In this document: piece by piece, positions 1-64,000 of the stretch
How the letters are laid out: the number at the start of each line of letters is the position of its first letter
Numbering within the stretch: the stretch's first letter is position 1
Assembly: GCA_030704615.1 (NCBI GenBank)
Contig: CM060733.1
Coordinates: 68,944,001-69,008,000 of the forward strand
DNA from: Takakia lepidozioides
Lineage: Eukaryota > Plantae > Bryophyta
Direction of reading: 5' to 3'
DNA: 64,000 nt
Program-made: the position numbers and the translations under genes
Notes under the pieces: generated by a model
The model's database searches: none
What the model was told of the DNA's origin: nothing
What the model saw: the letters and a program-made list of their open reading frames with translations, nothing else

Positions 1-642
1 ACACAATCAGTGATAGCAGATCTGTTGTTGTCACCTTGAAAAATCAGCACGCATGAAGGGCTGTAAGCGTTCTTGATCAAGCTAGTTAGCTCTGGTGCTT
101 TCCGGGGTTGCATTGTAAGTGCTCTTGCTTTTGTTGGGAATATTGGTGCAAAGGATTAAGGCTCGGCATAGCTACGGATCTCGACTGGAGGAGAGCAGGT
201 CACTGGTAACCAAGAGCTGTGGGGGGTGCATTTGTAAACACAACTGAAATCCTAGAAATTATAGGGCACGTGGCCAGGGAACCTAGGAAACCATATAGAA
301 CTTAGGGAACCGGGAACCAGTTACCAGATATTTTGGGTGTAACTTTAAATTTTTAAATTTGAAAACCTTTAAAAAAAAAAGGGGGCCCTTTTGATCTAAT
401 TTAAATGATTTAAAGCCAAATTGGTCATATCTTTGTCAAATGGACTCTGTTTGACTCAGTTTTTGGGGGGATAGCTGCAGAAAGGGGGAATCTACCTACC
501 TAGACTTGGTTTTTGTTTTTGGGACTCTGCTAAAAATCTATGGAATTTTTAGAGTATGAGTGTGCCATGAAAGATCCACAATCCTGTTTCTAGAACCTGT
601 TCTGGTCTACATGAGGGATAAATCTGGGGATGTACTCCTTGT

Positions 643-1377
643 ATGGCTGGGGGAAATGAGGACGTGATTGAAGGGCAGGTCTCTTCTCTTAGCCTGTGCA
701 CCAAAGGGGACAAGATTTATGTTTCCCAAGGAACTCAGACTGATTTGAGTGGAGAACAGTTGGACGAGTTGATTGCATACTGGGAGTCAGGCATTAGCAG
801 TAGACAACAGACTGCTGTAGTTGGCATTGAGGGCCTCAATATCGCCTTGGACAGTCAGAACTCTGTTGGAGCCAGCAGTTCTGCAGCTGTAGGTGAAATA
901 CCAAAGTGGGTGAAAGCTAGGCTTGGAACACAGCCAAAGACAGCCCCGGGGACCAAGGTGTTCAGCCACAAAGCCGTGGTGTACTGGAGTAGAGGAGCAG
1001 GAGCTACACAAGTTTGTGCAATCAGACAGCGTTGCAGCCGGACACGCTCTGCACAAGGCAACCACGAGCGGGGGTTCATTACCGAGGACAAGTTTGTTCT
1101 GTTTGAAGGAGATGCAATCATTCGCAATGAGGACACCCGCAACCGTCTCAAAGCTTTCGAGTTGAGAGACTATCAGACCCTACCTTTGTTTTCTTTAGTG
1201 TTCAGTGAGCGGGAGATAGGGGAGTATTGCTTTGTCTCTACCTGGCAGAAAGAGGAGGAGGGTTGGTTAGAGCGAGTTACTGTAGCTTGGGACAAGGTTA
1301 GTGGCAGGTTTCTGGACATAGATATACCTCCTACACCTTACCATCATGCAGAGCGAGGCACTTTGAGAGAAGTCTGA
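643..1377 (+). CDS. Hypothetical protein, probably a 5' extra ORF of element B
   Basis: Uninterrupted 244-aa ATG ORF, about 450 bp upstream of element B gag once element A is removed. Confidence 0.5.
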   Translation: MAGGNEDVIEGQVSSLSLCTKGDKIYVSQGTQTDLSGEQLDELIAYWESGISSRQQTAVVGIEGLNIALDSQNSVGASSSAAVGEIPKWVKARLGTQPKTAPGTKVFSHKAVVYWSRGAGATQVCAIRQRCSRTRSAQGNHERGFITEDKFVLFEGDAIIRNEDTRNRLKAFELRDYQTLPLFSLVFSEREIGEYCFVSTWQKEEEGWLERVTVAWDKVSGRFLDIDIPPTPYHHAERGTLREV

Positions 1378-1659
1378 CAGTTGATAGCATAGATCAGGAT
1401 TAGATCTTGCTTGGTCGGGCTTCTATTCTTCCCCTCCATCTCTGTACTATTTTCATTACCTTGTACTTGTAGTTGCCAAAGCCTCTCTTGGTGGAGGCCA
1501 GTCAGTCCGGGGTTTTGGGCTGGGCTATTCTGCAGGATCAGCATTGCAGCTGGATTTTGGTGTGGGGGTGTTGATGTTTTGATTTCTTGTGTTTGGATCC
1601 CCCCCAACACCTGCATGCTTGACTGTGCGCCATGTTGGTTGGATTAGGCCGGATTTGAT

Positions 1660-2605
1660 TGTTAGAGGACTGTCGGGGACTTAGACACTTATACGGGATC
1701 TGTAGGGTACCCTTAATTTTTGCACAGACTGAGACCAACAGGAGCCTTAGGGGTGACAGCAGCGCACTGCAGAGGGGGGTTACACAGCCCGTCACAGTCG
1801 TCACAGCCACACAGCCAGTCACAGCCCGACACAGCCAAACACAGTCGCACAGCCAACACAGCCCGTCACAGTCGTCACAGCCGACACAGCCAACACAGCC
1901 CGTCACAGTCGTCACAGCCACACAGCCAGTCACAGCCCGTCACAGTTTCACACAGCCAGTCACAGCTTGACACAGCTGTCACGATCATAGGGAACGAAGA
2001 GTAGGACAAGGAACGACTGTGGGGAACAACACCTGCGAAGGGAACATGTTAGTTCACAGACACTGTTAGTGAGGGAAACGGTTAGAACCGCGGAGAGGAA
2101 GATAAAGGGAAAGACGGGGAATTGAGGAGGGGGATTCAGAGGAGGACTTCTTGGTGATAGAGGAGAGGGGATCGGGCAGAGATGAAGAACGGAAGTGAAG
2201 ATAGAGAGATGATGAGTAGATGCTTGATATATGCAAGGCTGTAATGATATTGTAGAGTAGATTAGAGACACAATGGCTTCGGCCTGATACCTGATAAATC
2301 ATAATCGGATACTTTTACGATACAATCACACTGTGTAGAGAGATCTGAGTGAAGCTGTGGAATGAATGGATGAGTTGATGGAATCCAATAGATTGATAAA
2401 GCAAACTGATACTTAATTATCAATGGTAAGATAGTTAACATGAATACCAAAAGGGAAACAAATAGGAAACACCCCCATGATACACTAGCTGTAGGTCATG
2501 ACTGATTGTTCTGCGCGGGCTGAGTACTTAGAGATTTCCAACTCTTCAATCTTGGAGTTTCCGCCTCGAATAGCGAAGGGATGGGTGAGTAAAAGCCGCG
2601 CGACA
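1660..2605 (+). repeat. 5' LTR of element A
   Basis: TG...CA termini; direct repeat of 13865-14751. Confidence 0.96.
1783..1982 (+). repeat. CACAGC(C)-based degenerate tandem array inside the LTR
   Basis: Repeated cacagcc/cacagtc units; copy number differs in the 3' LTR (about 13987-14132) and in the related LTR (about 60545-60755). Confidence 0.9.
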
Positions 2606-3193
2606 TTTGGCGACCATACTGGGGACCTGGGACATGAACAACCAGATGTGACAGGCATCTGGTGGGATCATGGTGGTTGGACCATTAAAGAATTTGAAGT
2701 GAATCAAATTCCCTGTGGAACGAAGGAAGAAAGATTGTCCAAACAATTCTTTCAAAGGTTCTTGGAATTGCCAGACGGTTGTAAAGAAAATATTCTTAAA
2801 CGAGTGCATGATGCTGATCCAGAATGGGGTCTGGAGAAAGGAGTGATAAAGATTTATCAGGTAGCCTGTAGAGGAAGAGCACGTTGGTTACCAACATTGG
2901 TTTATGTGATAGCATTGCTATCCATTAAACGAGTAGAGTTTGAAGGCTGGGAAGAAAGAAAGGTGAATGTTTATACTCATATGCATGAAGAGCTTGTACT
3001 GGTAAAGAATTGGATTCCAAAGGATATTTTGTGGATCAAACTCACACCAAGAATAGCTTTTCAGACTTGTTTGCCATATGGTTATATGGTAACGGAGACT
3101 TCAAGTATAGCCAAGGGTGCATTGAAGCTTGAAAGAAACCCAGGCATATACGAGAGATATTACAGAAGAGAGTTTTGGTTATTGCCACATTAA
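2498..3193 (+). CDS. Extra ORF upstream of gag in element A, unknown function
   Basis: 231-aa open frame running through the LTR end and PBS into the leader; true start uncertain; no recognisable motif. Confidence 0.55.
   Translation: MTDCSARAEYLEISNSSILEFPPRIAKGWVSKSRATFGDHTGDLGHEQPDVTGIWWDHGGWTIKEFEVNQIPCGTKEERLSKQFFQRFLELPDGCKENILKRVHDADPEWGLEKGVIKIYQVACRGRARWLPTLVYVIALLSIKRVEFEGWEERKVNVYTHMHEELVLVKNWIPKDILWIKLTPRIAFQTCLPYGYMVTETSSIAKGALKLERNPGIYERYYRREFWLLPH
2608..2625 (+). other. Primer binding site, tRNA-Arg-like
   Basis: TGGCGACCATACTGGGGA, 2 nt after the LTR end; resembles the complement of plant tRNA-Arg 3' ends (TGGCGAC...CTGGGGA). Confidence 0.8.
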
Positions 3194-3214
3194 AAGAAAT
3201 GAAAGACATGGGAC

Positions 3215-5535
3215 ATGAGTGATGAAAGAGAAGCTAGACGACAGAGATATTCAGCAAAAAGAGAAAGCTATCTGAAAGCTAATTATCCATATCTTTGGGA
3301 GAGAGGAATAGACATAGGGGAATCATCTGGACCTCTCACACCATTAAGATCAAAGAGTGCATCACCTATACCAGAAGAACTAGAGTTGGATGCCACTCCT
3401 TCTGTTTCTTTGCAAGAAAGATTAAGGGAATTGGTACAGGAAGAAGATCAATCATGAGGTGAAAGATCTGAGGTACATCCTTGGATAAAAGACTTGACAG
3501 AAATCTTTGATAAGAGTTGGCATGGAACACCAAAAGCAGGAACTCCAGTTTCTGAAGCAGAAGGTGAAGAAGGAGAAGAGGATGTGGCAGAGCCAACGGA
3601 GAGTTCAGACTCTCCGACACCATTACAGTTGAGTTACATGAGTGAAGAAGAAACCCAAGGGCAGAACTTGGAGGATGAAAACAGAGAGAAGAAATTAGAA
3701 GAGGAAGAATATGAAGAAGTAGACCCAACAACTGAGGTTGAGACTACAACCAGGACATCCCAACCCGTTGGACCTGGATCAAGTGGAGCACTTGGATCAC
3801 AGGCCAACGAAGGTGTCGGCTCAGGGGGATCAGGCGGGCTGCCTGGATCTGGCTCTGGGGGGACAGGGAGTGTGGGAAGTAGTGCAACTGAAGCTGGGAA
3901 TACTGTGAATATCGTGGGGCCAGAAGCAAGGAGTGCTCAAGGGCCACCACTTGGTGGAAGATCCACCACAAAAACAACAGGTCCAAAGGACCAGCACCAG
4001 CAAAGGTGCCAGCACCTGTCAGTGGGCAGAAGGTAGGGCCACAGATGGCGTTACAACCAACACGGGCAAAACCACCCTTTCCAATATATTCAGGAAAAAG
4101 GGATCCCGATGTACACATTAGCCAATTTGAGCACATGTGTATAGTGAACAATGAGAATGGCGATGATGCCAAGATGAGACTGTTTCCTTGTTCACTTATC
4201 AAGAAAGCAAGTGAATGGTATGCAAGATTCCCTGATAATCATTTCCTAACCTGGAATGGCTTGAATACAACATTTCGAAATAGGTTCAGGACAAGTAAAA
4301 CTGAGGATGAAGTGTATGGAAGTTTACAACAGCTGAAGCAGAAGAAGCATGAAACTGTTGAAGAGTATATGGAGAAGATGGAATTGATGATGAAAAAGCT
4401 GGCTGCAGTACCAGCGCCCGGTTTACAGAAGACTTGGTTTGTGAGTGGACTAAGACCAGAGTTGCAAAAGAAAGTGGATATGTTACCCCATAATACAGTG
4501 GAGGAGGCATTTGAAACTGCGAACAGAATTGAGCAATTGGGAATGCTCAGGAGAGAGAAAAAAGAAGATGAGGACTCTGAGGATGAGTCAGATGAAGAAG
4601 AAGAGCAAGAACTAAAAAGAAAGAGTAAGAGAAAGGAGAAGTTGAAGAGGGATAACTATGAAAAAAAATTGGAAGAAATCTTGAAGAAGTATGCCACAGA
4701 GGCTGCAACACATTGGAGGAAGGGTGTATGGTGTGCAAAGTGCCAGAATGAAGGCCATACCACCACAGAATGCCACATGAAGGAGAAACACTGTACTATC
4801 TGTAAAATGGATAACCATTCTACTGAGAATTGTTACTACAACAGAAGGACAGCTGCAAGAGAACCTAGGCAAGTAAGGGTGCATCAGGTGCAGCCCCAGC
4901 CAAGAAGAAACAATGATCAGGACCACTATGGTAGGTCTGGTGGTTATAACAATGGCATGGAAGGGAGAGGTAATTCAAGAGGGAATTACCAAGGAAATTC
5001 CAGAGGCAACTATCAGGGTAATCCAAGGGGGAATTACCAGCCCGGGAATCAGGATTATAGAAATAATCCAAGAACAGACCAAGGGCGAGGACCCAATGGT
5101 GAAGAGCTATGTTACTATTGTAATCAGCCAGGACATCGCAAGGCAGCCTGTTCATTCTGGATAAGACACCAGAATGAGATGAGAGCTCCTGTGAATGAGG
5201 GCCCAGTGGTGGCAGCTCACATGGTTAGGCCATGTGTTGTACCAGAAGTAAGTACAATGATAGTAACAAGAAGTAAAGCCAAACTAATACCTCCAGTAGA
5301 AGAGGAAGAAGATGAGACTGGAAGTGGCAATGATATGCCTGAAGATGAAGAGACTTGGAAAGATGAGAAGGAACTGCACAAGGAAGTGGCAGATACTATA
5401 AGGAAAATGCAAAAGAGTACTGATATTCCTGTGGCAGATTCCTCTGATTCGGATGGAGAAAAAGAAGGGAGTGAGGAAGAAAGAAAAAAGAAGATGCAGA
5501 CATGCAAAGTAATGAAGAGACTTTGGCTGAAGTAA
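3215..5535 (+). CDS. gag: Gag of element A (acidic N-terminal part in shifted frames; capsid and zinc knuckles in 4006-5535)
   Basis: Retrotrans_gag-like segment (MRLFPCSL...ASEWY...QKKHETVEEY...FVSGLRPEL); CCHC knuckles CAKCQNEGHTTTEC, CTICKMDNHSTENC, CYYCNQPGHRKAAC. Confidence 0.9.
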
Positions 5536-8500
5536 TATGTCAGACCAAAGCAGAAATTACCATTGGACAGCTATTAGCTGTGGCACCTTATTGTAGGCAC
5601 AGGCTGTATCAAGCAATCAATCGAATTGCCCAAGAGACAGGAAACACAGACCTGAACAGCAAGGTGACCAGTTATAATGTGAAGCCGGAAGGGCGAGAAA
5701 CAGTCATGGACTTTGATGATTCTATGCCAGTAATCCAATTGAGAATTGGAAGCACAGAACTAACTGATGTACTGATAGATGGTGGTTCTGGAGTAAATAT
5801 CATGACAGACCAATTAAGGAAGAAGCTTGGTCTAAGTAACATGAAACCAGCCCCATTTACAGTAACAATGGCAGATCAAAGAAGTGTACAGCCATTGGGA
5901 TTAATAAGAGGAGTTAAGATACAGATACAGAAAATGATCTTTATGATCACAGTAACTGTATTAAAAATGGATGAAGTCATGGAGGCTTACTCCTTATTAT
6001 TGGGACGTCCGTGGCTGAAACAGGCCAGGGTATTCCATGACTGGAATTCTCAGTTACTAACCGTGCATAATGGGATACACGAGATACAAATTACCACAAA
6101 GAAATCTAGTAGATTACCTGCTACAAGAAGACCTCGAGGAGTCAGAGAGTATGACTGGAGAGGAGGACTGGATGAGGAGCAGGAAGCTACCCTATTTGCT
6201 GCACACCCAGAGTGGGAGCAGGTTGCAGAGATGCGGCTGGAAAGCCTAAGTTGTTTGAGAGGTATCTGCTGTGGTGTAGTGACAGCAACACCAACTGAAG
6301 AGGAAACCAGCATTTACCCATCACATTTCTATGAAGAAAGAGAAGGAGAAATAGAAATCCTAGAAGAACCAGCCACTGTGAGCTTACAGGATGAAGTGGT
6401 GACTGGTTGGACAATCACAGCTGATGAGCAGGTGAGAGAAGTAAATGTGGGAACTAAAGAGGAACCGAGGATGGTGAAAGTAGGAGCTGATTTGGAGCCG
6501 GAATTCTTCGAAGAAGCTAAAAGCTTGTTCATCAAATACAGAGATGTATTTGCTTGGAGCTATGAGGATCTAAAAGGGATACCACCTGAAGTCTGTCAGC
6601 ATAAGATTGAACTGGAACCAGGGTCAGTACCAATCAAGCAGGCGAGGTATAGAATGAATCCCAACTACGCACAGAAGGTTGGAGAAGAGATAAAGAAGTT
6701 GGCTGAGGCTAAGTTTATATACCCAATAGAGTATACAACTTGGTTGTCACCCATTGTTATAGTTCCCAAGAAGAATGGCAAACTAAGAGTATGTGTGAAC
6801 TATAAGAAGCTGAATGCTTGTACGAAGAAAGATCCTTTCCCTTTGCCATTCACAGAAGCAGTATTAGACACTGTGGCAGGCCATGAGATGTACTCATTCA
6901 TGGATGGCTTCAGTGGTTATAATCAAGTGCAAGTGGCAGAAGAAGACCAAGGGAAAACAGCTTTCATCACAGACTGGGGGGCTTATGCATACAAAGTCAT
7001 GCCCTTTGGACTTTGTAATGCACCAGCGACCTTTCAGAGAGTGATAAGTGAATCTTTTCATGAGTATCTGGATGATTTCATGCAGGTATTCTTGGATGAT
7101 TTCAGTGTGTACAGCTCTAAGAGTGAGCACTTGCATAAATTGGAGTTATGTTTGGCCAGATGCAGGATGAGAGGTCTGGGCCTGAATCCAGAGAAGTGTA
7201 CTTTCTGTGTGAACTCAGGGGTGCTTCTGGGACACATTGTGTGTAAGAAGGGACTCCTTGTGGATCCCAGAAAGACAGAGTCCATTAAAGCCTCTCCACC
7301 ACCAGTGAATGTTAAAAGTCTACGGAGATTCCTTGGGCAAACCAGTTATTACAGGAGATTTGTCAAAAGGTATGCACAAATAGCAGCACCATTGAGCAAA
7401 CTACTGAAGAAAGATGCAGTGTTTGCCTGGACAGCTGAATGTCAACAGGCATTTGAGGAACTTACACTGTCAGTAACAACTACACCTGTGCTGATTAACC
7501 CTCACTGGCATGTAGTATTCCATGTTCACTGCGATGCATCAGGAGAAGCGTTGGGAGCGGTGTTAGCCCAGAATGTTACAGGGAATATAGATTCACCTGT
7601 GTACTATGCTAGCCGGTTGATGAACAGTGCTGAGAGGAACTATAGCACAACGGAAAGAGAAGCATTGGCAATGATCTATGCAGTGAAGAAATTCAGGCAT
7701 TACCTGTTGGGCAAGAAGTTTATGTTCTATGTGGATCACCAGGCTCTGATATATCTGGTAAACAAACCTCTGATAAGCGGAAGAATAGCAAGATGGTTGA
7801 TAATCTTGCACGAGTTTGAGTTCGAGGTTGTTTACAAGCCTGGAGACTGCATCTTGTGGCGGATCATTTGTCACGATTGTCAACAGGAGAACCAGCCACA
7901 GGAATAGATGATCAATTACCAGATGCGAGTCTCTTTGCAGTGGAGGTGCAGGGAAGTGCAGATGACTGGTTAGATTGGCAGTGGCCAATCAGATACTACC
8001 TTGCTCATGGTCAGTGCCCACCTAGTTATGGTAAGGAGCAGAGGAAGAGAATCGCTATCAAAGCTTTACCTTATACTATGGTAGGAAGCAGAATGTATAA
8101 GTTAGGACCTGATGGAGTACTAAAACGATGCTTGTACCACCATGAAGTAAATAAAGTTTTGGCGGAAGTTCATAAAGGAGTGGCTGGAGGTCATTTTGGA
8201 GAAGAGACTACCAGTAGAAAGATACTACTCGCAGGATACTGGTGGCCTACTTTGTTCAAAGATGTACACGAGTATTGTCAGAAGTGTGATGAATGTCAGA
8301 GGCTAGGACCTTTGCAGAGATCTGGAAGGATGGCCTTGCATCCTACAATGCCTACGGAACCATTTCAGAAATGGGGACTAGACTTTGTTGGACCAATTAA
8401 CCCACCATCCAAGAATACACGAAACAGGTACATAATTACAGCCACTGATTATACTACAAAGTGGGTGGAAGCTAAAGCTTTGAGGGACAACACAGCCAAG

Positions 8501-9556
8501 TCCACAGCAAGGTTCCTGTACGAGAACATACTTACACGATTTGGCTGTCCCTTAGAATTTATCAGTGATCAAGGAAGTCACTTCATGAATGAGACCATTG
8601 AGTTGTTGACTAAAGAGTTTATGATTGTGCATAGAAAGAGTACAACATATTACCCACAGGGTAATGGGCAGGCAGAGGCTACCAACAAAATACTATGTAC
8701 TATCTTGGCTAAGATAGTCAATGCAAACAGAACGGATTGGGATACAAAGCTGCTGACAGCTTTGTGGTCATACAGGACTTCATATAAAGTCACCACTAAG
8801 TATACACCATTCCAATTAGTTTATGGTATGGAAGCCTTACTTCCAGTGGAATTCCTGTTACCTACCATGAGAACGGAGTGGGGAAAAAGAATGGAATTGC
8901 AAGACTCCATCAAGGTCAGGAAACATGAATTATACCATGTGGAAGAAGTACGTGCTGATGCAGCTGATAATATGACCAGAATTCAGATGAAGCGAAAGGA
9001 ACAGTTTGATGAAGGCAAGTTAAAGACTTTTAAGACGGGGGATTTGGTTCTATGGTTGCAGAAGAAAGGAAAGATTCAAGCTTCTAAGCTTAAATCACCA
9101 TGGAAAGGACCTTATGTCATACAAAAGATGTATGATAACAACACCGCCATGTTACAAACCATTAACAAAGAAATGCTGGGAAGAGTCAATGCAAATAAGT
9201 TGAAGGGGTACAGTGGTATCCATGACAAACCCTTGCAGCATGATTTGCATGTTGAACCGCAAGAGCAGTCACGGGCTGCACCAGTGTTACGAACGGAGTA
9301 TGGAGCACTTGTCGCTAGGCCCAGCATATATGACCAGGGTGGGCAAAACAAACGTGACACAGCCTATCACAGCCCATCAGGCGCAACACAGCCTATCACA
9401 GCCCATCACGACGTGACACAGCCTATCACAGCCCATCACAACGTGACACAGCCTATCACAGCCCAGCACGGCGCAACACAGCCTATCACAACCTACCACA
9501 GCGTGTCACAGCCTATCACAGCTTACCACAGTGCATCACAGCCTATCACAGCGTAA
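5502..9556 (+). CDS. pol: Pol of element A (protease, RT, RNase H, integrase); one frameshift near 7850
   Basis: Protease LIDGGS; RT YKVMPFGLCNAP and FLDDF; RNase H HCDAS...TEREAL...YVDH; integrase HHCC, GLDFVG, SDQG, NGQAE and a GPY motif; no chromodomain. Confidence 0.95.
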
Positions 9557-9595
9557 CACAGTATGACACAGCCTGTCACAGCTCAACACAGCCTA
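9355..9595 (+). repeat. About 30-bp tandem repeat (ACACAGCCTATCACAGCCCATCAC...) at the 3' end of pol
   Basis: About 7 units, translated in frame as TQPITAHH-like repeats. Confidence 0.9.
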
Positions 9596-10059
9596 CTAAA
9601 GTTACACGATCCATAGAATCAGTGACAAGTGGACGCATAATAACTTCAGGAAAATGGCTGACGGAAGAGGAAACGGAAATTACTTTAAAAATAGACACGT
9701 GGAGGTCAGGGCGCGACACACAGCCGAGAAGGAAGTGCAAGAACAGGTGTCAAAAAGAAAGAGGACAAGAACGGCCGTCAAAAGGGATGAAAGGCGGGCC
9801 CATTAATGAATACGGAAAAAGGGAAACGGAACGAACGGCAAGTACAGAAAAGCGAATTCTTGTCACATGTGTGATCCTAGTGGACTATCCAACAGGGAAA
9901 GTCCACTAAAGAAGATAAAATCTAAAATCCAGTCACAGCGGATACAGCCAATAGAAAACCAGAGAAAGGATCAAGAAAATGGAGGGAAATTGAGCGCAAG
10001 AGGCGGCGTCGTTCTGAGTAACGGGGCGTCTCGACAGGACAGACCATCAATGCTATAGC

Positions 10060-13000
10060 TTGGAAACTATGGAGGAACTAACAGACTATACGCTCGCAAT
10101 ATTACTTACGCAGTGGCATAGACACGAAAGGACAGAGCAGAGCTTTTCTCTTGAGCGATGCTTGCAAGCCCCGCAGGCTTACAAGAAATTACCCATAGCT
10201 TTCTGCGGCAACCATACGTTTATGCTTTGTGCACTACAGGCATTCCTGCAGTTGTTACAGCCAAAACAGTTCTGTGAGTCTAAAATGAAGAGAGTGAGAG
10301 GAATGGAGGAAATCAGGGTGAAGAGCACCACAATTCTGCAGAAACAAACGATTGCTACCCCACAGGCGATACAGATACTGGAGGAGCTGAGATTGCAAGG
10401 ATTGCAAAGCCTAGATTGGACACTACACCATAGACAGTACATGTTACAATTTTTGCAGAACTTTGAGCCAAGGACAGGAACAACAACGGTGAAGGGAGTT
10501 GAATTAATGATTACTCCCCTATACCTCCAGCAATTGTTTCGATTGCCAGCAGGTCAGGTGCATGTGGAGGAACACAGGGCAAGACTGCAAATAGGGGACT
10601 TATTCCAAGAAGGGAGTTTCTTTAAAACTCAGGGTTATGCTTGTACCAAGGCTGTGTACCCAGGGTTAAAAGAGGTAGGCCAGGTATTGAACGTTCTGAT
10701 TGCCATGAAACAGAACCAACAGTATTTTGAGCAGATCCTTCACGGAGGAAATACTCAAAGGCCTGAAGGGACAAGAGGTACAATGGGCGGACATAATGTA
10801 CAACGCACTGGTAGAGGAGATGAAAAGATTACAAGGTACTACCGCAAAGTCTCCTATCATAGTGTCTGGCCCAATCATTGCTCAAATAATCCTTGATTCT
10901 GGCATACTTAATGCGCAAGAAAGAAAGGAAATGGGAGTGTTTGAGCCAGAAACAACTGCAATGGAAGAGCAAGGCTCTTCACACAGTGAGGGTGGACTAG
11001 CAGGGCAACCGAGACTAAGAGGCAGAGACGGGGAAAGACTGTAGTGGCGGATCCACTGGCTTCACGGATTCCGCATGATAATGTTTCCCAAGCTCATGGC
11101 CAGGAAGGGGCACAGCAGCACAGAGAAATGCTATTACTGGAAGCAGGACCTTCAGAGAGGGAGGAGGAAGTTACTTCTGCATCACAACCACACAGCCACC
11201 TGAACGACTTGTCACAAGGTCACAAGTTATCCATGCAGCTCAACCAGAAATAATTGATTTGGAAAGTGAAGGGTTAGATATTCCAACTACAGAACAGATA
11301 GTGGCAGAAATAGAGAAGGGGGACCTTCTCTATGAATATTCTGGTCTGGTCAAGGAGACAGAAATCCCAGAGGTGCAACAGTTGCCCAAGGGAAATCCTG
11401 AGGTGCATATAATACACACACCTGTGTCGGAGGTACCACAGGCGGAAGGTCATGACACTGTAGCACCGGTGATAGATGTAGTTCAGGAAGAAAATCCGGT
11501 GGGACAATGGCCTGAATGGTTAGTGAGACATCACACTGTTGAAGATCAGGAGGAACAGCAGCAACCTCACCATGATGACCCTCAACAGGCAATGCTGATG
11601 AGTTCCATAGGCAGGACACTTAATTTGTTGGGGACTTATGTCAAATCCCATGTTCCAATTACCCAATTGACAGCCTTGAGAGAGGAACTCAGGAAGGAGT
11701 TTGAGGCTCGACTTGCCACTGAGTGTGCAAACAAGGTCGATGAAGAGGTCACTCTCAAGATGAAGCAGGACTTGGGAAATACAGAAATGGCTTTGCAATT
11801 GGCCAAGGAACAATTGATTGAGGCAGGCCTCGCGCAAGACCAGTTGCACGAAGCACATAAGCAACAGCTATACCAAATGCAGGTGCAGCATGAAAGCAAG
11901 TTGCAAGAACTGAATGCACTACATACGGAGTTGCAGACAGTGCATAACAGGATGGCGATACAATGTGCTACATTTACAACTATGCTTGACCAATCTACAA
12001 AAGAAATAAACAGTCAAGCGGAAAATGTACGAAGGCAGAAGAGAGAATGTTGAGCAAATGAAGCTCATTGTCGATATGAAGAATACAATCTGTCGCAATG
12101 AAGATACTTTCAAGCAATACAGGCAGATTGAAGCTGATCAAGAGAAGCACATCGTGGAGTTGCAACAAACCATCATGGCCAATAGAAATGAAATCGCGGT
12201 CAATAACAAGGCTTGGAAGGAAGCCAATAATCTACTTGCTGCTTATGCGCAATTGGTTTGAACCTCAGGCGAAGCGCATGGAGGCTTTACAACAGCAGTT
12301 GGAATTGTACAAGCTAAGAGAGGAGCAAACTCTCAGGGGAACCACAAGCAACTTGGTGGATAACAGCCTTATGCAGGTCTGGTTAGCACAAGGGCCAGTA
12401 GAGGGCAAAGCACCACGGAAGCTCACCCAAAGCGAGATGAATGAGCTCAGGCTGCAGGTGCAGAACATTGCCACAACTACTATAGACAATGTCTATAGTA
12501 GGATAGCAGAGTTACAAGAGGATGTAGACGGACTCCAGACTCAAGTGGAAGACCTCACTTCAAACATCGACCAAAGAGTCTATATCCCTCAGGAACAGCT
12601 AATGGCTTCTTATTTACAAGCCAGAACTTTGGCTTTTCAGTCTTCACAGGAGGTGCAGGAGATGCCAATGATACAAGAGCCAGTACCACCACCACCACAA
12701 CAAGTCACTGTACCAGTAGCTGAACCTGTGGTTACTACAAACCACACCACAGCCACCACAGCCGGAGGTATGGGGCAATGCCGCTTTTAACCCACCTAAA
12801 ACTCCAGCTGCAAGGGAGTACAGTAGGGCTATGATTATGCCCTTCAACCAAATTCCCATCATGTTGGATTTGGCTTGGAAAGAATTTAGTCCTCCGCAGT
12901 CATCGCACATTACTACCAAATCATGCGTATTTGGCTGCCAGTGGCAACTAGGACTAAAGTTCTTCCAAACAATCGACATATTGAAGATCATCACTTTGCA

Positions 13001-13827
13001 CAATACTGGGCACGAGGCAGGTACCATGTTGAGGGATTGATTGCTTTCCAGGTTGTACATGGACTCATTTATACCAAGACCAAGGAGATAGCAAGTATTG
13101 TCATGGGGTGCGGGTTAACTACGCTGCTTGTTTTTCTGGTACGTTACCACATTGAGCAACAAAAGATGCAAACACGCTTTCTGAGTTATTCCAGTGGAGA
13201 TCATTGGGTATTACCTTCGGTGCCACCTCATATGTACCTATATGACCCAAAAGTTATGATGCAAAAGGATTCTCAAATTCGTTCATGGTTTCAAGCGCCT
13301 GAACATTTGTCAACACAGAAATTCGGCATTGATGACATTTTCTATAAGGGACATGTGGCATGGAAAGTACTTGCACGCTGCACCAGTAATTGGTACCCCA
13401 CTCACCTGGACAGACAAGGAGCTCAGTGTCTACACCAATTTTGCTGTTCAGCGGTTACACCAAGTTGTAAAATACAAACTTCCAGACATGGTAGGACAGC
13501 ATTGTATGCCCCAGATGATTCCACAAAAAGTTCGAAAATTAAAACACCTGAGAGGCGATGAGGATTCTGATACAACTGTTTCTTCACCGAATTCTTTTGA
13601 CATGGGAGAAGACTATGCAATTCAGATGCAAGAAGAAGCGACGGGGGTCTCCTATGCCGGAAAGGTTACCTCGATATCAGCCTCCAGAGGGCCTCACTTA
13701 TCCAGGTAGTGATCAACCATCTCCGTCAACCAGAGACAGACCTCGGGCTCGTACACACAGTCCGCCACGAAACTCTCAACGTCAAGAAGGTGCTCACTCA
13801 CAAAGGTTTGCTAGTCGAAATCAGTAA
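10060..13827 (+). pseudogene. Large 3' extra ORF of element A (frameshifted), with a plant-transposon-protein-like N-terminus and a long coiled coil
   Basis: Successive overlapping ORFs from 10060 to 13827; the same protein is encoded by the related copy at 60946-63951 (e.g. QGPVEGKAPRKLTQ.EMN.LRLQVQNIATTTIDNVYSRIAELQ). Confidence 0.75.
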
Positions 13828-13848
13828 ACCGTGAGGACACGGCTTTTT

Positions 13849-13861
13849 GAGGGGGAAGGGG
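13849..13861 (+). other. Polypurine tract of element A
   Basis: GAGGGGGAAGGGG ending 3 nt before the 3' LTR. Confidence 0.9.
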
Positions 13862-13864
13862 TAA

Positions 13865-14751
13865 TGTTAGAGGACTGTCGGGGACTTAGACACTTATACG
13901 GGATCTGTAGGGTACCCTTAATTTTTGCACAGACTGAGACCAACAGGAGCCTTAGGGGTGACAGCAGCGCACTGCGAGGGGGGGTTACACAGCCGTCACA
14001 GGTCGTCACAGTCGTCACAGCGTCCTCACAGCCACACAGCCAGTCACAGCCCGACACAGCCAAACACAGTCGCACAGCCAGTCACAGCCCGTCACAGTTC
14101 ACACAGCCAGTCACAGCTTGACACAGCTGTCACGATCATAGGGAACGAGAGTAGGACAGGGAACGACTGTGGGGAACAACACCTGCGAAGGGAACATGTT
14201 AGTTCACAGACGACGGTTAGTGAGGGAAACGGTTAGAACCGCGGATAGGAAGATAAAGGGAAAACGGGGAATTGAGGAGGGGGATTCGGAGGAGGACTTC
14301 TTGGTGATAGAGGAGAGGGATCGGGCAGAGATGAAGAACGGAAGTGAAGATAGAGAGATGATGAGTAGATGCTTGATATATGCAAGGCTGTATGATATTG
14401 TAGAGCAGATTAGAGACACAATGGCTTCGGCCTGATACCTGATAAATCATAATCGGATACTTTTACGATACAATCACACTGTGTAGAGAGATCTGAGTGA
14501 AGCTGTGGAATGAATGGATGAGTTGATGGAATCCAATAGATTGATAAAGCAAACTGATACTTAATTATCAATGGTAAGATAGTAACATGAATACCAAAAG
14601 GGAAACAAATAGGAAACACCCCATGATACACTAGCTGTAGGTCATGACTGATTGTTCTGCGCGGGCTGAGTACTTAGAGATTTCCAACTCTTCTATCTTG
14701 GAGTTTCCGCCTCGAATAGCGAAGGGATGGGTGAGTAAAAGCCGCGCGACA
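13865..14751 (+). repeat. 3' LTR of element A
   Basis: TG...CA termini, followed by TSD TTGAT. Confidence 0.96.
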
Positions 14752-14912
14752 TTGATCACCGGTCAATCCTAGAGTATGCTGTCGGTGGTGAGGCTGGAGT
14801 GATGACCAGCAAGACCACCAGTGTTTCTTCTATGGTGAGGCTGGGTTGATGACCAGCCAACCATAGGAGTTCTTGCGGTGGATGCAGGTGCAGGTGCCCT
14901 GAGCCATTGGGA

Positions 14913-17094
14913 TATGACCCTTAAACTGCAACAGGTGCCCACCCGTGTCACTATTAGATTAGTACTAGAGCCTTATAGTGTCACGTGGAGGAGGTGCACA
15001 TTGTGAGTGTCATTACGGAGTTACCCAAGGGTTTTGAGGGAAGTACGGCTACAGGCAGAGTAACAGTGAGAGTGGGTTCACAAGACGAGGTATTCGGTTC
15101 AGACCACCTTCACCGCCACCCTCAATTACTGTAGAGTCAGACACAGACTCGGAGGCTTCATCAACAGGTGTGCACTTTCATTCGCCATTGTTGTGGGACG
15201 ACATGGAGGAGATGTATGGAGCTACCAAGGGGCCTCGTAGGTACTCTGGAGCTGTGGGCACAATCGAGTTGGATGACTTTATCCAGGAATTCGACAGCTG
15301 GTGTGATTTGCAGCAGATGCGCAATCCACAGCTATTCACCCCATTCATGGCGTGGAAGGGACTGTTCCAGCATTTGGAAGGCCCGCCTATGGACGATTAC
15401 CACGAGTTCAGGCAAGGACATGAAGCAGAGATTGAGGAGTGGAGGATGTATTGGTCACCTGACTACGTCTCCATTATTCGAGGCACGACGCAACCAGTAG
15501 CTGCATCAGTACCAATAGCTCCCATGCCAGCACTAGTAGTGGAGCAAGTAGTGCTGGTACTTCTGTAGGTGGTACCAGTTCAAAAGGTGCTACTACTCCT
15601 CCTGCCACGACTACAACACATGTGCCTAGATTCAACCCGGTGGTGGAGTTCTTCCAGGAGTTGCGGAGGAACTACCAAGGTGTACGGACAGAGAAGCTGC
15701 GAAGTTTGCAAGACTTCCAGCGCAAACCCAGTGAGAGCCTGCGAGAGGCGTACACTCGTATGAGGCGCTTGATAAGTGTGACCCAAGGGGTTACTGAAGC
15801 TCAGGCAATCCAGTTTTGGTATGGAATTCTGGACAAGGAGCTCAAGAGAAGGGTGCGAGATGCAACCTTGTTACAAGCAGCCCAACCCACATTAGCAGAT
15901 GTGTTTCTGCTGGCTGAGCGGATTGAGCTCAACATGGTGGAGAAGCGAGTTGTCACCATTGGATTTGGCAAGGACATGCCTGCACAAGGCGCAGCTGCCA
16001 GCCCACAGGCACAAGGTACTGCCCAGCAGCGTGGTCAGGGGGGCAAGGTTTCCCAACCCAAGTTCCATGGAGCTTACAGGGGACCTCAGGTGCAGAGGCC
16101 CGTGGCATCTTTTGCAGGCCAACAGCAACCAGGGATGATATGTTGGACATGTGGAGGACCCCATGTCAAGAGAGATTGCCCAGAGAGTGGCAGACAACCT
16201 GCACAGTTGCAGTGTGGGCATTGTGGCAAGTATGGGCATGGAGATGCCCAGTGTTATGACTTGCATCCTGAGTTGCGCCCAGGCCAGTTCCAAGGGAACA
16301 ATGGTGGCCGGGGGCGAGGTGGACCAGCCCAAAGAGGACGAGGTGGTCGGGCACGAGGTGCAGGCCAAGGGAAAGCTCCACATGGCCAAGGACGCGGAGG
16401 TCAGGGTGTTGACCAAGGCATGGCCAATCGGCTTCAGCAGCTAGAGCAGAGGCTCGCTGCCATGGCTATAGCTCAGGCGGTACCGGCTCCCAGGCGGGAT
16501 GGTCCACCTCCTGCTCCTGAGGGAGGAAATATGGGAGGCATGGGATTCATGTGCGGAGCAGCACTACCACTAGAGCAGGTGGAGTCTGCTGCAGCCGTGA
16601 CTCAAGGAGCAGCACGAGTTCCTGAGCCACGAGGTGCAGAGGTGGAATTGGATCCACAGCGTGGGGAGGCAAGCCGTCAGGTGAGGCTTCCTCAGTCATT
16701 CACATTGGCAGAGACTGTGTCGACGCCATCCATGGCACCTAGTTCTCGCCCGACTGTTACCGAGGCGGAGGTTTCTATGCCATTGGGGAGAGCTACACGT
16801 GCAGCACTGACACCTACTGCAAAGGCTAGTGCAGCCGGTGTGTTGTTGGGGGCAGCCACCTCTGTGTGTCAAGCCCCACTGTTCTCGGCAACCATGATTG
16901 CGACGCCGGGGGTAAGACCAGCTGCAGTGTTCAGACTAGCAGCAACACTCTGTGAGAGTGGGGAGGTCATTTCATCTTCTGCGGAGTTAGTGGAAGGGTG
17001 TAGTGGCAGAGGGATCCTCGGATTTGAGGGTCAAGACTGCCACGGCTGCGCCCTGGCAAGCTGCAGCTGCCAGGTTGACGGAGCTGCCAGCTAG
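14913..17094 (+). pseudogene. gag: Gag of element B (frameshifted; start approximate)
   Basis: QRKPSESLREAYTRM capsid-like motif; knuckles CWTCGGPHVKRDC and CGHCGKYGHGDAQC. Confidence 0.85.
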
Positions 17095-17099
17095 GCCAG

Positions 17100-17560
17100 C
17101 CTTTGAGCGCGCCATGGTGACACCTGGAGTTGTCTTGTTAGACAACCAGGGAGGCATTTTCACTTTGAGTGGACCGGCAGGCAAGAAGTACCGGCCACTG
17201 CGGGTCTTGTTGGACTCGGGAGCTTAGCCACTGATGTTGGGCAGAGCTGCTGTTGCAGGTTTGGGCCTCATGGAGGCGGATATGGAGCCTTGCCCTTTCC
17301 AGATACAGACATCTCTAGGAGGATCAGAGCAGGCTCGGGGCATGACACGGCATCAGTTGGCCATTAGACTGCAGCGGATCATCCTATCGATGGCTCAGTA
17401 ATGCGAGCCAAGGCCATTGTGACAGACGCAGTCTCTTACGATGTCCTCGTTGGTGGGGCAGTGTTATACCCCATGGGCTTCACCCTGGACTTTTGGGAGG
17501 AGTCAGCATCCTACAGGCCTGGATGGCAGTCAGGCGATGGTCGCCGTGCACAGCTCCCTG
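17100..17560 (+). pseudogene. Aspartic protease of element B
   Basis: RVLLDSGA active site followed by an in-frame TAG (17225-17227); downstream YDVLVGG motif. Confidence 0.8.
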
Positions 17561-17909: not shown

Positions 17910-18880
17910 GTATCCGGATGAAGGCATTTGCCTTCTGGACTTGTTTGGCGGGATCAGCACCGGATTGGCTGCTGTGCTACAGGCAGGTGTACGAGTTCGA
18001 CGTTACCTGTATGTGGAGAGGGATGAGACTGCACGACGCGTCTCACTGCGCCATGTTGCTCAGTTGGTACAGCATACCCTGACTTGTTGCCAGTGTCTGC
18101 AGTTCGTGGATTCCAACAAGCCTTGCCAGCAGACATTTCTTTGCTGGGGGCGCAGGATTTGGAGCAGGTTGGCTCCATTGATCTGGTAGTGGCAGGTTGG
18201 CCCTGCCAAGGGCATTCATCAGCCGGGCATGGCAATGGATTGCGAGACTCGAGGACGGGTCTGTTTTGGGAGATGGTGCGGATTTTGCGCACTTGCAGCT
18301 TCATCAAGCTGTATCTCCAGCATACATCTTGGAGAATGTACCACTGATGGGTGATTCTCGGGCCAGGGTGATGGCCAGTGTGCATCAAGTCCGGTCGTGG
18401 CTTGGGTCAGCAGTGTTGCTGGATGCAGCTGCAGTGGGGTCACGGGCTCATCGTCCACGGCTTTGGTGGACTAACTTGATGCCACCCGCACTACTCAAGC
18501 GTGCATTTGATGGGGTGCAGCGGCCAGCACACCTTACCGTGGATGGCATTTTGGACACAGGGAGGCAGTCTCAACGTGTGAGACACGATGACCGTTCGCC
18601 TTTGGCAGTGGTCAACAGGGTGGGTCAACCACGAGCAGCATTACCTACACTGCTCAGCTTCCCAGGATCCCATGCTTTTCGGGATGGTGGACCTGGCCTC
18701 CTGTGGGATGCTCAGTTGCAGCAGTTAGTGGAGCCTAATGCCGACGAGCGAGAGCGGGCTATGGGGTTTTCCACTGGGACCACGGCGGTGCCTTCTCTTT
18801 CTGAGGCATCACGTCGTCAGGTGTTGGGGCAAGCAATGGATCTCAATTGCTTGACCTGGATTGTCAGCTTGGCTATGGCT
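17910..18880 (+). pseudogene. C5 DNA cytosine methyltransferase domain (DNMT3-like) inside pol of element B; two 1-nt frameshifts
   Basis: Motif I LLDLFGGISTG; II YVERD; IV IDLVVAGWPCQG (PCQ codons 18201-18209); V GLFWE; VI YILENV; VIII AHRPRLWWTN; IX ERERAMGF; X RRQVLGQAM; all in canonical order. Confidence 0.93.
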
Positions 18881-19236
18881 GAGCAACGTAGAGTGCGGAG
18901 TGCACTTCCCTTGATGGTCTCTCTGCCTACCGAGACGGTACAGGCAGCGAGTGGGGGCGAGCCGGTGAGGACCACGGGGTGTAGACATCCATGGCACACG
19001 TGGGAGGTGCTCGAGGTTCAGAGGGAGTTGGCAGCCAAGGCAGCTGTGATGGATGAGGTTGGGGATTCTTCTCGGGATGAGGAGGTTCTCAATGATGAGA
19101 TGATGGGGCAGGATGAGGCCTTGTCATTGACTGAGCAGGAAGGGAGTACTGCTCAAGAGGTTGCAGCATAGCAACCACGGGACGCGTCCTCTACCTCTAA
19201 GCCCACTGGACTTAAGGTTGCAGTTACGGAGGACAA

Positions 19237-22200
19237 TTGCCTGACATTGGACCCATTGTCACTGGAGGAGAGAGACGACGTATACGGCGGTTCCTGAGGG
19301 CTTACAGGAATTGCTTTGCCTTCAGTTTGAAGGACTTGGGAGCACTGAAGGGTCAAGAGATCCGTATTGAGTTGGCCACTGACACGCCAATCTTTCGGAG
19401 ACCCTATAGATACAGTGACATGGAGAGGTCTTTGATTCAGATGAGGACTCAAGATCTCTGGGAGGCAGGTTTGGTGGAGCTCTCTGGTGGAGAGTATGCT
19501 TCAGCCACAGTGATGCCAACTAAGAAGGATGTCTATGGCAATTGGACGGAGAGACGTATGTGCGGTGATTACCGGCCTGTAAATCGTCAGACCAAGTCCG
19601 ATAGGTATGCCATGCCAACACCAGAGGAGATCTTTGATGCCATTGGGCATTCCAAGGTCTTTAGCACGTTGGATTTACGATCCGGATATCACCAGTTGCC
19701 GATCAAGGAGGCGGATAAGCAAAAGACGGCATTCTGGGGGATCAATGAGCACGGGAAGGATTGCCTATACCAGTGGCGGTTCTTACCATTTGGGCTTAAA
19801 AACGCTCCCGCTGAGTTTCAAAGAGTCATGGACAGGATTCTAGCAGGGGTGGAGTTTGCTCGGTGCTACATAGATGACATCATCATCTTTAGTGCTACGG
19901 TGGAGGAGCATGAGAGACACCTTCAGGGGGTATTTGAGCGCTTGAGGACGCACGGATTGAAGTTACATCCGGGCAAGTGCAAGTTTTTCCACAACCAGAT
20001 TGAGTATCTGGGTCACATGATATATCCTGGAGGATTGGGGGTACAGCAGACTAAGGTAGAGTCCATTGCACAGGTTCCACGCCCCACGGATGTGAGCCGA
20101 GTTCGAGCTTTCATGGGGTTAGCAAACTATTACAGACGGTTTGTTAAGGGATTTAGTGCCATTGCAAAGGCTCTAACCAAGCTGACCAAGGTGGACCAGG
20201 AGTGGCAGTGGGAAGATGAGCAAGAACAAGCTTTTCAAGAGCTCAAGGCGAGGTTGACCTCGGCGCCCATCTTGAGACGACCTATCAGGGGGCGTCCTTT
20301 TCAGCTGCATACAGATTGGAGCATGCTGGGGCTTGGAGCGGTGCTCACACAGGTGGATGATGAGGGAAGAGAGTTCGTAGTGGCTTATGCTAGCCGCTCG
20401 AACAATGCTGCAGAGTCTAAGTATAGCTCATATGAGGGAGAATGCTTAGCTGCAGTGTGGGCCGTGGCACACTTCAGGTGCTATCTATACGGCAATCTCT
20501 TCACCCTTGTCACGGATCACCAACCACTCAAGTGGTTGATGGAGTCAGACAAGCTTACGGGGAAGCTTGCACGGTGGGCACTCATCCTTCAAGAGTATGA
20601 CTTTCAGGTGGTGCATCGACCGGGTTTGGTCAATCGCAATGCAGATGGGTTGAGTCGCAATCCATGCACGAGCCAGCAGGATGACACTGGAGCTCGGTGG
20701 CATGGTGAGACGGACGAGGAGATGGTGCCCGGATGGCATGCATCTGCATTTCTGTGTATCTTGGCAGCGGAAGGCCAGGTTGGACCTGCAACAGGGATGA
20801 CTGTAGATCAAGTGTCTGAGGACCCTGAGGCCAGCAATGAGCAAGGTGGCGCCAAAGATATACATGAGGATTCAGTTGTGTTGGACTACCTCCGCACTGG
20901 AGACACGGCAGCCACTGTGACTGCCAAGGAGAGGGATCGGATCCTACAACGAGCCAAGAGGTTCAAGTGGGAGGGGACACACCTGCTCCGAGTGTGGGAG
21001 GATGGTCGAGTGAGGATTGTGCCTCACCCAACACAGCGGGCACGGTTAGTGCGCCATGCCCATGAGGAGTTGGGGCATTTTGGGGTGCGACGCACTCATA
21101 GTCTACTGCAGGGGCAATATTGGTGGCGTGGTATGCACACAGAGGTGCAACAATTTGTGGCTAGGTGCATGGTGTGTGACAGGGTGCGTGCTTCATTCAA
21201 CGCCCCTACTCCACAATTGCACCCTCTTCCGATCATGGTATTGGGCTACAGGTGGAGTCTTGACTTCGCAGGGCCGTTGCCACTGACCATGCGCCACAAC
21301 AAGTACGTGTTGGTGATGGTGGAGCACTTCTCCAAGTGGATTGAATTGGTTCCATTGCCTGATAAGGCTAGTGAGGGAGCTGCGTATGTTCCTGGATTGT
21401 GTGCTTAGCCGATTCGGTGCTCCAGCTGAGGTACTCACGGACCAAGGGAGAGAGTTCTTGGGGGAGTTTCAGGCTTTGTGTGACAAGGCCTTGATAGACC
21501 ACCGCACCACTTCTCGGGATCATCCTGAGGCCGATGGCTTGGCAGAGAGAGTTGTTCAGACAGTAAAGAGGGGTTTGCGCAAGTATGGCTTGCAGAAGGG
21601 ACACCTAGGAGATTGGGACCTTCAGTTACCCTGGTTAGCCATGGGCTACAGGTTCAGCAAGCAAGCATCACTTGCCTCCTTCTCACCATACTTTCTTCTC
21701 TTTGGCCGAGAGCCGGATTTGCCTACATCCATTCGCAGAGAAGCTGCTACAGTTCTTAACCTTGACGATCCGGACGTGTGGGCACGTGCATGTGAGCAGC
21801 GTGCAGAGTTGTTCAAGAGAGTCATGCCCATGGCTTTCGAGAACCTTGCCATTGCACAACACCGTGATACGTTGAGGTATGCTACCATACGTGGTGGGGG
21901 CTATCGTCCTGGGGTTCGGAGATTCAACCCTGGTGACTATGTCTATCTGCAGCAGATTGCTCCTACGACCCTGGATGTGACTGCAGGACGTGTTATTTTG
22001 AGGGTTCGAGAGGTCTTGCCCTCAGGCGTCTTGGTCTTGGAGGGTCGGGATGGCATAACTTGGAAGGACCATGTGCGTAATTGTGCGCCATGTCACCTTC
22101 CGAATGTCGATGGCAGCATTGATCCAAACCTGGCAGTGGTATCTGCAGGTTTGAGGTGCATGTTGTGTGGGTCTGCTAAAGGGGCAGCCACCATGCTGGT

Positions 22201-22300
22201 GTGCGATCGATGCTCTAGAGGTTGGCATATGGGATGCTTGACTCCACCTCTTGAGATGGTTCCAGATGGGGATTGGTTATGTCCACATTGCATTGGATAG
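19237..22300 (+). CDS. pol: RT, RNase H and integrase of element B (frameshift near 21390)
   Basis: RT LPFGLKNAP and YIDDI; RNase H HTDWS...YEGECLA...VTDH; integrase HAHEELGHFG...CMVC, SLDFAG, LTDQG, GLAERVV. Confidence 0.95.
22157..22291 (+). other. PHD finger at the integrase C-terminus
   Basis: C4HC3 pattern CMLC...MLVCDRCSRGWHMGCLTPPLEMVPDGDWLCPHC. Confidence 0.93.
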
Positions 22301-22549
22301 TGGGAGTGGATACAACCATGGAAGGCTAACAAGCAACGCAAGGCCCAGCTACTAGGAGACCTTGAACACACGAGATCCTGGCTCAAGTTCACAGATTGCA
22401 AGACGGCGACTAACGATGGGGCTACTCTTGTACCCGGCCCCTTGGTCTATAGAGTTTGAGTACAATAGGGACAGTGATAGAGGACTTAGTACGGCTGTGG
22501 CTATTACATCTTGTAGCTATCTGGAGGTAGAGGGACCTATCCACCAGCT

Positions 22550-22630
22550 AGGGGGGCGATTGTGGCAGACTACTTTATTGTGCATATATGTGTGGTGTGG
22601 TTTGGACAACGATGTAGTTGTGTAGCGATA
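22550..22630 (+). repeat. PPT and start of an apparently truncated 3' LTR of element B
   Basis: AGGGGGGCGAT then TGTGGCAGAC at 22561; no matching LTR copy recognised elsewhere in the window. Confidence 0.5.
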
Positions 22631-22699
22631 TGTATGCGCACGACAGAGACAATGTGCAGCAGGTCCACGAGGAAACATGGCCACAAACCAAAATTTGGT

Positions 22700-58834: not shown

Positions 58835-58835
58835 A

Positions 58836-59519: not shown

Positions 59520-59890
59520 GTATGAGTTCCAACCAATCTGATGTACAACAATTCATGAGCATAGTTCATGTTTCGTTGAGTTTGATTGACATGGTCTTCG
59601 TGCTTGATGACAGCTTGTGCTTGCATGGTTTCCTAAGTTACTCTTCTTTCTTTATTGACATATTGCATGTTATTACATGTACTTTTATGGACCTTGTACA
59701 TAATAAAGTATTGTTCTATAGTGGTGGTTTATGTCATTGCCGTGGCCTTTGCTTTGTTTTGGTACTTCAGTTGACAAACTACTTTGTCAATTTTTTGTTC
59801 TTTGAACTTTGGTATGGAGCAGTTCTGGAGAAGTTTGGTACTTGCACTCCATGTCACTTAAGTACTGTCTAAGTATTATTTACACCTTAG

Positions 59891-63900: not shown

Positions 63901-64000
63901 GCAGTGCCTTGTAACCACTTCATCTCTTCCACCCAAACCATTGTACATTAAATCCGCCCAAGCCACATCTTCCCCCCTCAAGGCTTTCAGTATCTCCTCC
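59891..64000 (-). mobile_element. 3' part of a second member of element A's family (element C); continues past the window end
   Basis: LTR 59891-60907 homologous to A's LTR; PPT 60911-60924; 3' extra ORF homologous to about 10750-13827. Confidence 0.93.

Follow-up and report, generated by a model that had tools for sequence, protein, structure and literature searches.

A DNMT3-like methyltransferase and a conserved in-frame stop codon in a high-copy Ty3/gypsy element of Takakia lepidozioides

Why retrotransposons keep cytosine methyltransferases is a question that has stood since 2018, when a retrotransposon DNMT and the idea of self-methylation were published (PMC5890265). The hosts known at that time, Symbiodinium and Klebsormidium, are hard to work with. 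The same question is raised by a locus in the land plant Takakia lepidozioides. The window analysed here is a stretch of 64,000 nucleotides (assembly GCA_030704615.1, contig CM060733.1, positions 68,944,001 to 69,008,000 of the forward strand; coordinates below are those of the window), in which an earlier note had pointed to a DNMT3-like methyltransferase embedded in a gypsy polyprotein. The region is a decayed copy of a high-copy Ty3/gypsy element of the Gypsy-DNMT3 kind, and it carries a DNMT3-like domain.

The C5 cytosine methyltransferase domain occupies 17914..18883 on the + strand, and its motifs I-X follow the canonical, non-permuted order of DNMT3-type enzymes. All of the motifs listed by the earlier note were located on the coding strand between the protease and the reverse transcriptase (RT): LDLFGG (17935-17952), GWPCQG (18195-18212), LENV (18329-18340), AHRPRLWWTN (18446-18475), ERERAMGF (18746-18769) and RRQVLGQAM (18812-18838), together with YVERD (18010-18024). 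Two frame breaks, near 18074 and 18289, spread the motifs across three frames; the catalytic Cys of motif IV, the Glu of motif VI and the two Arg of motif VIII are all there. When the pieces were searched against Pfam, the middle piece matched PF00145 (E 4e-11, 43 bits, cut-off 22) and the two outer pieces had no Pfam match. A profile built from 20 relatives gave E 2e-22 for DNMT3A, 1.7e-8 for the best plant DRM-type entry and 2e-4 for DNMT2. The top Foldseek matches of an AlphaFold model of one relative, P0008 (pLDDT 78.7), were DNMT3A/B with an E of 4e-18. Judged on the relatives and the profile, and with solved structures only, the domain resembles DNMT3 more closely by sequence and predicted fold than it does DRM, DNMT2 or bacterial enzymes; the earlier note had likewise read DNMT3, as opposed to permuted plant DRMs, from the motif style. 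The combined signal from motifs, profile and fold is far beyond chance.

The domains follow each other in the order gag, protease, DNMT, RT, RNase H, integrase and PHD finger, which is the Ty3/gypsy order PR-RT-RH-IN with an intronless DNMT3 as in Gypsy-DNMT3. All features of the copy lie on the + strand. Gag (15038..17000, breaks near 15524 and 16996) has two zinc-knuckle-like motifs (16141-16179 and 16213-16254) and matched Retrotrans_gag at E 0.002, below the cut-off. The aspartic protease region (17100..17560) contains LLDSGA at 17207-17224, followed by a premature stop just past this motif and a break near 17374; the protease of the relatives gave a weak Asp_protease_2 match. Beyond the methyltransferase, a linker, RT (19552-20022, with YIDD at 19867) and RNase H (20209-20598) together span 19178..20598 with a break near 19238, and the integrase (21028..22120, break near 21388) has both the HHCC motif and the core. 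A PHD finger at the integrase C-terminus (22157..22291, Pfam E 7e-11) was nearest to the fingers of CHD4, PHF12, KDM5 PHD1, ATXR5 and PHF21A, most of which are readers of unmethylated H3K4. A polypurine-tract-like sequence (22543..22556), also found in moss-type relatives, precedes a terminal B repeat (22559..22645) that ends in GACA and matches the B end of locus L073; depth drops there, and 22645 is the 3' end of the copy. With seven frame breaks and the premature stop, the copy in the window is dead.

The 5' part of the element (1..1659, with a depth of ~1e5-8e5 from ~400 onward) was severed by a nested insertion, and in one contig 1659 runs straight on into the sequence at 14757. This part includes a high-copy ORF of 251 codons (622..1374), across which other contigs list no indels and which had no Pfam match, no Atlas match and no tblastn match in the 80 loci described below. 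Two imperfect tandem copies of ~55 bp each are found at 14786-14865, also in the 5' region. The true 5' end was not found within the window and may lie before base 1. The insertion is an unrelated 13-kb Ty3 element (1660..14751, + strand) with LTRs of ~0.9 kb and a 5-bp duplication at 1655-1659 and 14752-14756. Its LTRs contain 10-bp tandem repeats, and extra ORFs between its integrase and 3' LTR (10018-13700) had no Pfam match. A copy related to it runs to the window end on the - strand (59890-64000). Elsewhere in the window there are an exon of an AT-hook gene (36429-36917, - strand), which we take to belong to the land-plant AHL family, and decayed PPR repeats (45900-47050, + strand), presumably of the PLS-type PPR family; both mark the host as a land plant. 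Long ORFs of 425 and 256 codons on opposite strands at 57778-59522 had no convincing Pfam match and are possibly another transposon.

Other copies were examined through contig depth and metagenome loci. Summed contig depth in run X2 was ~1.0e6 over the DNMT, 1.09e6 over the RT and 80 in the flank bin, so that the DNMT bin stood at 0.94 of the RT bins and ~1.3e4 times the flank bin; since summed contig depth is no copy number, these values are read only as thousands of copies, most of them with the DNMT. In a run labelled with a different organism, a 5-kb contig covers the DNMT through the PHD finger. At all seven break sites of the window copy other contigs differ by indels, so the family as a whole does not share these breaks. 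From 131 stretches confirmed in a metagenome scan, 80 loci were retained, 78 from one moss-type family (some of them duplicates) and two from a second family. When the DNMT in the window was compared with six of the 80 loci, dN was 0.20-0.24 and dS either reached 2 or more or was saturated; the same comparison gave a dN of 0.15-0.19 for RT and 0.46-0.55 for the region before the DNMT domain. By these substitution rates the DNMT is under purifying selection, as in Gypsy-DNMT3. Of 226 aligned rows, 220 retain the catalytic Cys of motif IV and 223 the Glu of motif VI. The earlier note had named copies without the domain, loss of these residues and absence of selection as results that would speak against it, and the data went the other way on all three. 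The DNMT is a stable family feature, not an accident.

Protein relatives were found well beyond this host. The C-terminal domain piece had 58, the best of them 77% identical: 17 Marchantia polymorpha gene models, two from Calypogeia, two from Sphagnum and 37 without an organism name. RT matches add Riccia, Closterium and Klebsormidium. The relatives from Marchantia, Calypogeia and K. nitens are known here as proteins or gene models. A profile search gave 595 clusters at E <= 1e-30, the best 150 of which were viewed, and viral contigs gave no relative.

In moss-type relatives split direct repeats are arranged as A..B-A-B, complete in L073 and L050, or as A..B, with partial forms in L004, L018 and L043. 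These relatives have a purine tract ahead of B, ends of the form TG..CA and 4-bp target duplications, which among ten copies with both ends were exact in seven, had one mismatch in two and had two mismatches in one. The window copy has a single B repeat, and other contigs of the host continue from there into a B-to-A-like junction. For this copy the window showed neither an LTR pair nor a 5' terminus nor a target duplication. A canonical two-LTR retrotransposon was rejected on the lack of an identical LTR pair in the window and the split repeats in relatives. Troyka was also rejected, as it needs CG..CG ends and a 3-bp duplication and the relatives have TG..CA and 4 bp. The B-to-A junction in L004 and L018 forms a GACA-GC-TGTC palindrome that resembles joined integrase ends; in L073 the junction lies at 14886-14895, and loose contig ends occur at 22642-22646 of the window.

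The frame that holds motifs VI-X closes at a TAG (19169-19171) followed by CAACCA. This in-frame UAG-CAA-CCA between methylase and RT (TAG CAA CCA, 19169..19177), absent from the earlier note, has the context of a readthrough-type stop and ends the Gag-PR-DNMT frame. Sixty-six of the 80 loci cover the junction, and 65 of them have a stop at the homologous codon (47 TAG and 18 TAA; the remaining locus has TAC). The six bases after this codon are CAACCC in 58 of the 66, TAACCC in four, CAACCA in two and something else in two. The linker is unbroken in 20 loci, and in 17 of these RT is in phase with the stop frame (two are shifted and one lacks RT); L057 has 766 open codons beyond the stop. With 78 of the 80 loci belonging to a single family or duplicating one another, and L062 not spanning the junction, three independent families remain. 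The string GCA TAG CAA CC is common to these three (window, L057 and L009) with differing neighbouring codons, and silent sites between the window and L057 and between the window and L009 are at or near saturation. Among the 1451 TAG sites in the window, just four are followed by CARYYA. The type I, or TMV-type, readthrough motif is UAG-CAR-YYA, and according to passages of PMC3542737 it also works with UAA. With the next frame in phase, the motif is exact in the window and in L057, and most moss-type loci have CAACCC, one base off the consensus. Liverwort and unnamed related proteins end 78-164 residues past motif X wherever this is measurable, and the window falls within a 13-row clade of the DNMT tree (99/99) whose proteins terminate behind the DNMT and are known mostly as protein sequence. 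Counter-cases are P0053 and P0062, which are in the RT clade of the window and are open through the junction, with no stop. RNA structure 3' of the stop gave a z of 0.09 over 99 nt and of -2.5 over a 143-nt span (3 of 200 shuffles, unreplicated); there is no clear 3' RNA structure at the DNMT/RT stop, unlike in the readthrough systems used for comparison.

As the in-frame stop is conserved, the DNMT is not inside one continuous polyprotein frame with RT, and the earlier proposal that it is embedded in a single gypsy polyprotein and cut out of it finds no support as written. The domain is instead the C-terminal part of a Gag-protease-DNMT frame, and methylase would be produced as abundantly as Gag. 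From the codon, its context and the phase of the next frame we consider it likely that the UAG is read through to RT-RH-IN-PHD. Most ribosomes would halt at the UAG and yield Gag-PR-DNMT, and a minority would read through and yield RT-RH-IN-PHD. Methylase would accordingly be packaged in amounts like those of capsid, presumably to be released by the protease. New cDNA is the sole double-stranded DNA in the particle, and its methylation is thus the simplest function: an active enzyme would act on cytosines of the new cDNA before integration. The likeness of the PHD finger to readers of unmethylated H3K4 suggests insertion into silent chromatin, with the finger steering insertion to chromatin without H3K4 methylation. 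Taken with cDNA methylation, such steering would bring new copies pre-methylated into silent chromatin. This chain sets out from the observed domain order, the stop and its context, the family-wide retention, the selection, the catalytic residues and the relationship to the Klebsormidium element, and a dinoflagellate retrotransposon DNMT3 that methylates CG de novo, as reported in passages of PMC5890265, supports it. We give the whole of it, from a leaky UAG through a methylase made and packaged near Gag numbers to methylation of cDNA before integration, about an even chance of being right. CG depletion in the element was no stronger than in the neighbouring Ty3 element without a DNMT (O/E 0.50 vs 0.35; z -7.1 vs -6.3), and eleven copy-specific transitions (5 CG, 3 CHG and 3 CHH) are too few to use.

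The seven frame breaks and the premature stop of the window copy could also be taken as the functionless decay of a host DNMT3 fragment captured once. Breaks that are not family-wide contradict this, as do the retention, selection and catalytic residues; the nearest DNMT relatives are all element-borne, and the searches listed no host-type DUF3444 for any of them. The depth over the domain, the dN/dS pattern and the retained catalytic residues refute the idea, to which we assign a negligible probability. A different alternative accepts that the DNMT ends the Gag frame and would have RT-RH-IN-PHD made by splicing, from an internal promoter or by reinitiation. Marchantia and Sphagnum gene models do bridge DNMT to RT over the stop site, and a pyrimidine-rich stretch lies downstream of the stop; however, the five gene-model joins examined have differing ends. 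A junction promoter is described for Tca2 in the abstract of PMC2194720, where the gag-stop-pol junction alone did not direct readthrough. Against any of these routes, three families have a linker that keeps the frame and contains one stop only, and a Met after the stop occurs in the moss-type family only. These points make the alternative rather improbable, and readthrough of the UAG stays the preferred reading.

Other alternatives concern the substrate. If the DNMT were released and entered the nucleus, it might methylate in trans, on other copies, rival elements or host chromatin, and so add a further route of de novo methylation or keep copy number in check. Synthesis at Gag level would seem to exceed the enzyme needs of one cDNA, the family is very abundant in its host, and all land-plant hosts known so far lack seeds, a group in which the host DNMT3 performs de novo CG and CHH methylation (PMC6453930, in part). 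Fusion to Gag nevertheless favours work inside the particle, as general retroelement biology would have it, and the methylome of K. nitens is ordinary and plant-like in the passages of PMC5890265, so action in trans is in our view unlikely, if less so than a bypass of the stop by splicing or a promoter. The domain could instead methylate or bind the element RNA or an RNA:DNA hybrid in place of double-stranded DNA. DNMT2, with the same fold, acts on tRNA; Gag-like stoichiometry would suit the coating of RNA, and no distinct CG-loss signature was seen. The K. nitens enzyme was without activity on yeast DNA, a result its authors called inconclusive (PMC5890265, in part). Yet sequence and fold are far nearer to DNMT3A/B than to DNMT2 (2e-22 vs 2e-4), and an RNA substrate appears the least probable of these three alternatives, well above a single capture all the same. 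Methylation of the new cDNA inside the particle remains our preferred function.

The broadest reading is that a Ty3 lineage of green plants, marked by split repeats and an integrase tipped with a PHD finger, is ancient and has had an active DNMT3 since before land plants, and that one branch shifted the enzyme from Pol to Gag dosage by a leaky stop, loading its particles with methylase. Wherever a host has thousands of copies, the element would then supply an unrecognised pathway of de novo methylation, acting on cDNA and possibly on host chromatin. Taken jointly, these claims are tentative and on balance doubtful. The stop itself leads to a quantitative prediction: the amount of methylase should match that of capsid, and RT/integrase should reach a small fraction of it. 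This contrasts with the published picture of one DNMT per RT. As 17 of the 58 matches are from Marchantia polymorpha, the question can be tested in a genetic model with existing methylation mutants. Without an LTR pair, the lineage could escape surveys that rely on LTRs, and Gypsy-DNMT3 copies may inflate DNMT gene counts in seed-free plant genomes.

No description of land-plant members or of a DNMT/RT stop was found, with subscription journals and Repbase outside the scope of the search. The family is not described in the passages seen of 10.1101/363937, PMC5009743, PMC8557442, PMC9033089, PMC12440569, PMC6890710, PMC6453930, PMC6317226, PMC2829016 and PMC10952607, and the main text of REXdb mentions neither methyltransferase nor PHD, Marchantia or Klebsormidium. 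Two later works (PMC12344493 and bioRxiv 10.64898/2026.05.21.726589) say just "streptophytes" in the passages available, one of them citing the 2018 work, and their supplementary trees may hold land-plant sequences. The kind has been known as Gypsy-DNMT3 since 2018, and the land-plant members and the conserved stop after the DNMT appear to be new.

Trees place the element beside a charophyte relative. The careful DNMT tree used 48 hand-picked of 227 rows and was unrooted, with no host DNMT3 rows. The DNMT trees were built without spans shorter than 250 profile positions or longer than 480 residues (P0053 and P0062 among these) and without most fragments, and the RT trees without matches shorter than 300 or 330 residues. 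K. nitens GAQ93235, with zinc knuckle, PR and DNMT, and Closterium proteins fell on the window's side of a DNMT branch supported at 95/92 (unrooted). The RT tree agreed, in that these proteins stood apart from a group of 63 rows whose DNMT comes after RNase H. Both trees bear out a relationship to the charophyte element, of a kind that the earlier note had mentioned, and it looks like common descent and not parallel capture. The 63 rows form one RT clade, with one named example, from Scenedesmus. They belong to a second, very diverse Ty3 lineage with a related DNMT3 between RNase H and integrase (P0044, P0221, P0260 and others). These trees imply that the DNMT module was relocated or transferred between Ty3 lineages, with a chlorophyte distribution absent from the papers compared. 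In 57 of 107 after-RNase-H rows and in the Closterium proteins motif IV is unusual, with Glu in place of the Pro before the catalytic Cys. P0219 (2112 residues) combines the copia-type RT family PF07727 with a weak DNMT match (E 2e-17) and is possibly a DNMT-bearing copia element.

The DNMT groups with that of the Klebsormidium element, KnitGypsy-Dnmt3 of 2018, which is the closest known system. It shares Ty3/gypsy domains and an intronless, non-permuted DNMT3 under purifying selection, and in passages of PMC5890265 it has the DNMT3 in the Pol ORF, DIRS-like repeats and, in its authors' reading, an origin by acquisition in the K. nitens lineage; Klebsormidium has 33 DNMT genes in all (Supplementary Data). 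Its host is an alga, whereas the present element lives in a land plant at far higher copy number. Its DNMT and RT are in one ORF according to the authors, in contrast to the conserved stop here, and the main text does not mention the PHD finger that the present element has. NCBI annotates one K. nitens copy (GAQ93235) as two neighbouring gene models with the break behind the DNMT, so a division of this sort could date from before land plants. In Symbiodinium, SymbioDIRS-Dnmt3 is likewise a retrotransposon-borne DNMT3 with split direct repeats, and in the passages of PMC5890265 it is the sole such enzyme with demonstrated CG de novo methylation; it is of the DIRS class and was described as independently acquired, whereas the present element has a DDE integrase and relatives with 4-bp target duplications. 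The EpiLTRs/DAM-LTRs are Ty3-like too and combine DNA methyltransferases with a chromatin reader, but their DNMT is sister to DNMT4 and comes with DAM and a chromodomain, and their authors separate them from streptophyte Gypsy-DNMT3 (bioRxiv 10.64898/2026.05.21.726589, in part). The host DNMT3 of seed-free plants (PpDNMT3a/b) has the same non-permuted catalytic domain, and host plant DNMT3 genes carry DUF3444 (PMC6453930, in part). The K. nitens host DNMT3 gene is multi-exonic in the passages of PMC5890265, whereas the DNMT of the element is intronless. The stop has its own comparisons. TMV-type readthrough, SIRE1 env, MLV gag-pol and Tca2 all have an in-frame stop between two frames, and TMV-type readthrough also shares the UAG-CAR-YYA context. 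Stop suppression has been described in a plant retroelement, SIRE1 (PMC2829016, in part). In contrast to SIRE1 env, MLV gag-pol and Tca2, the stop here follows neither gag nor pol but an accessory enzyme, dividing Gag-PR-DNMT from RT-RH-IN.
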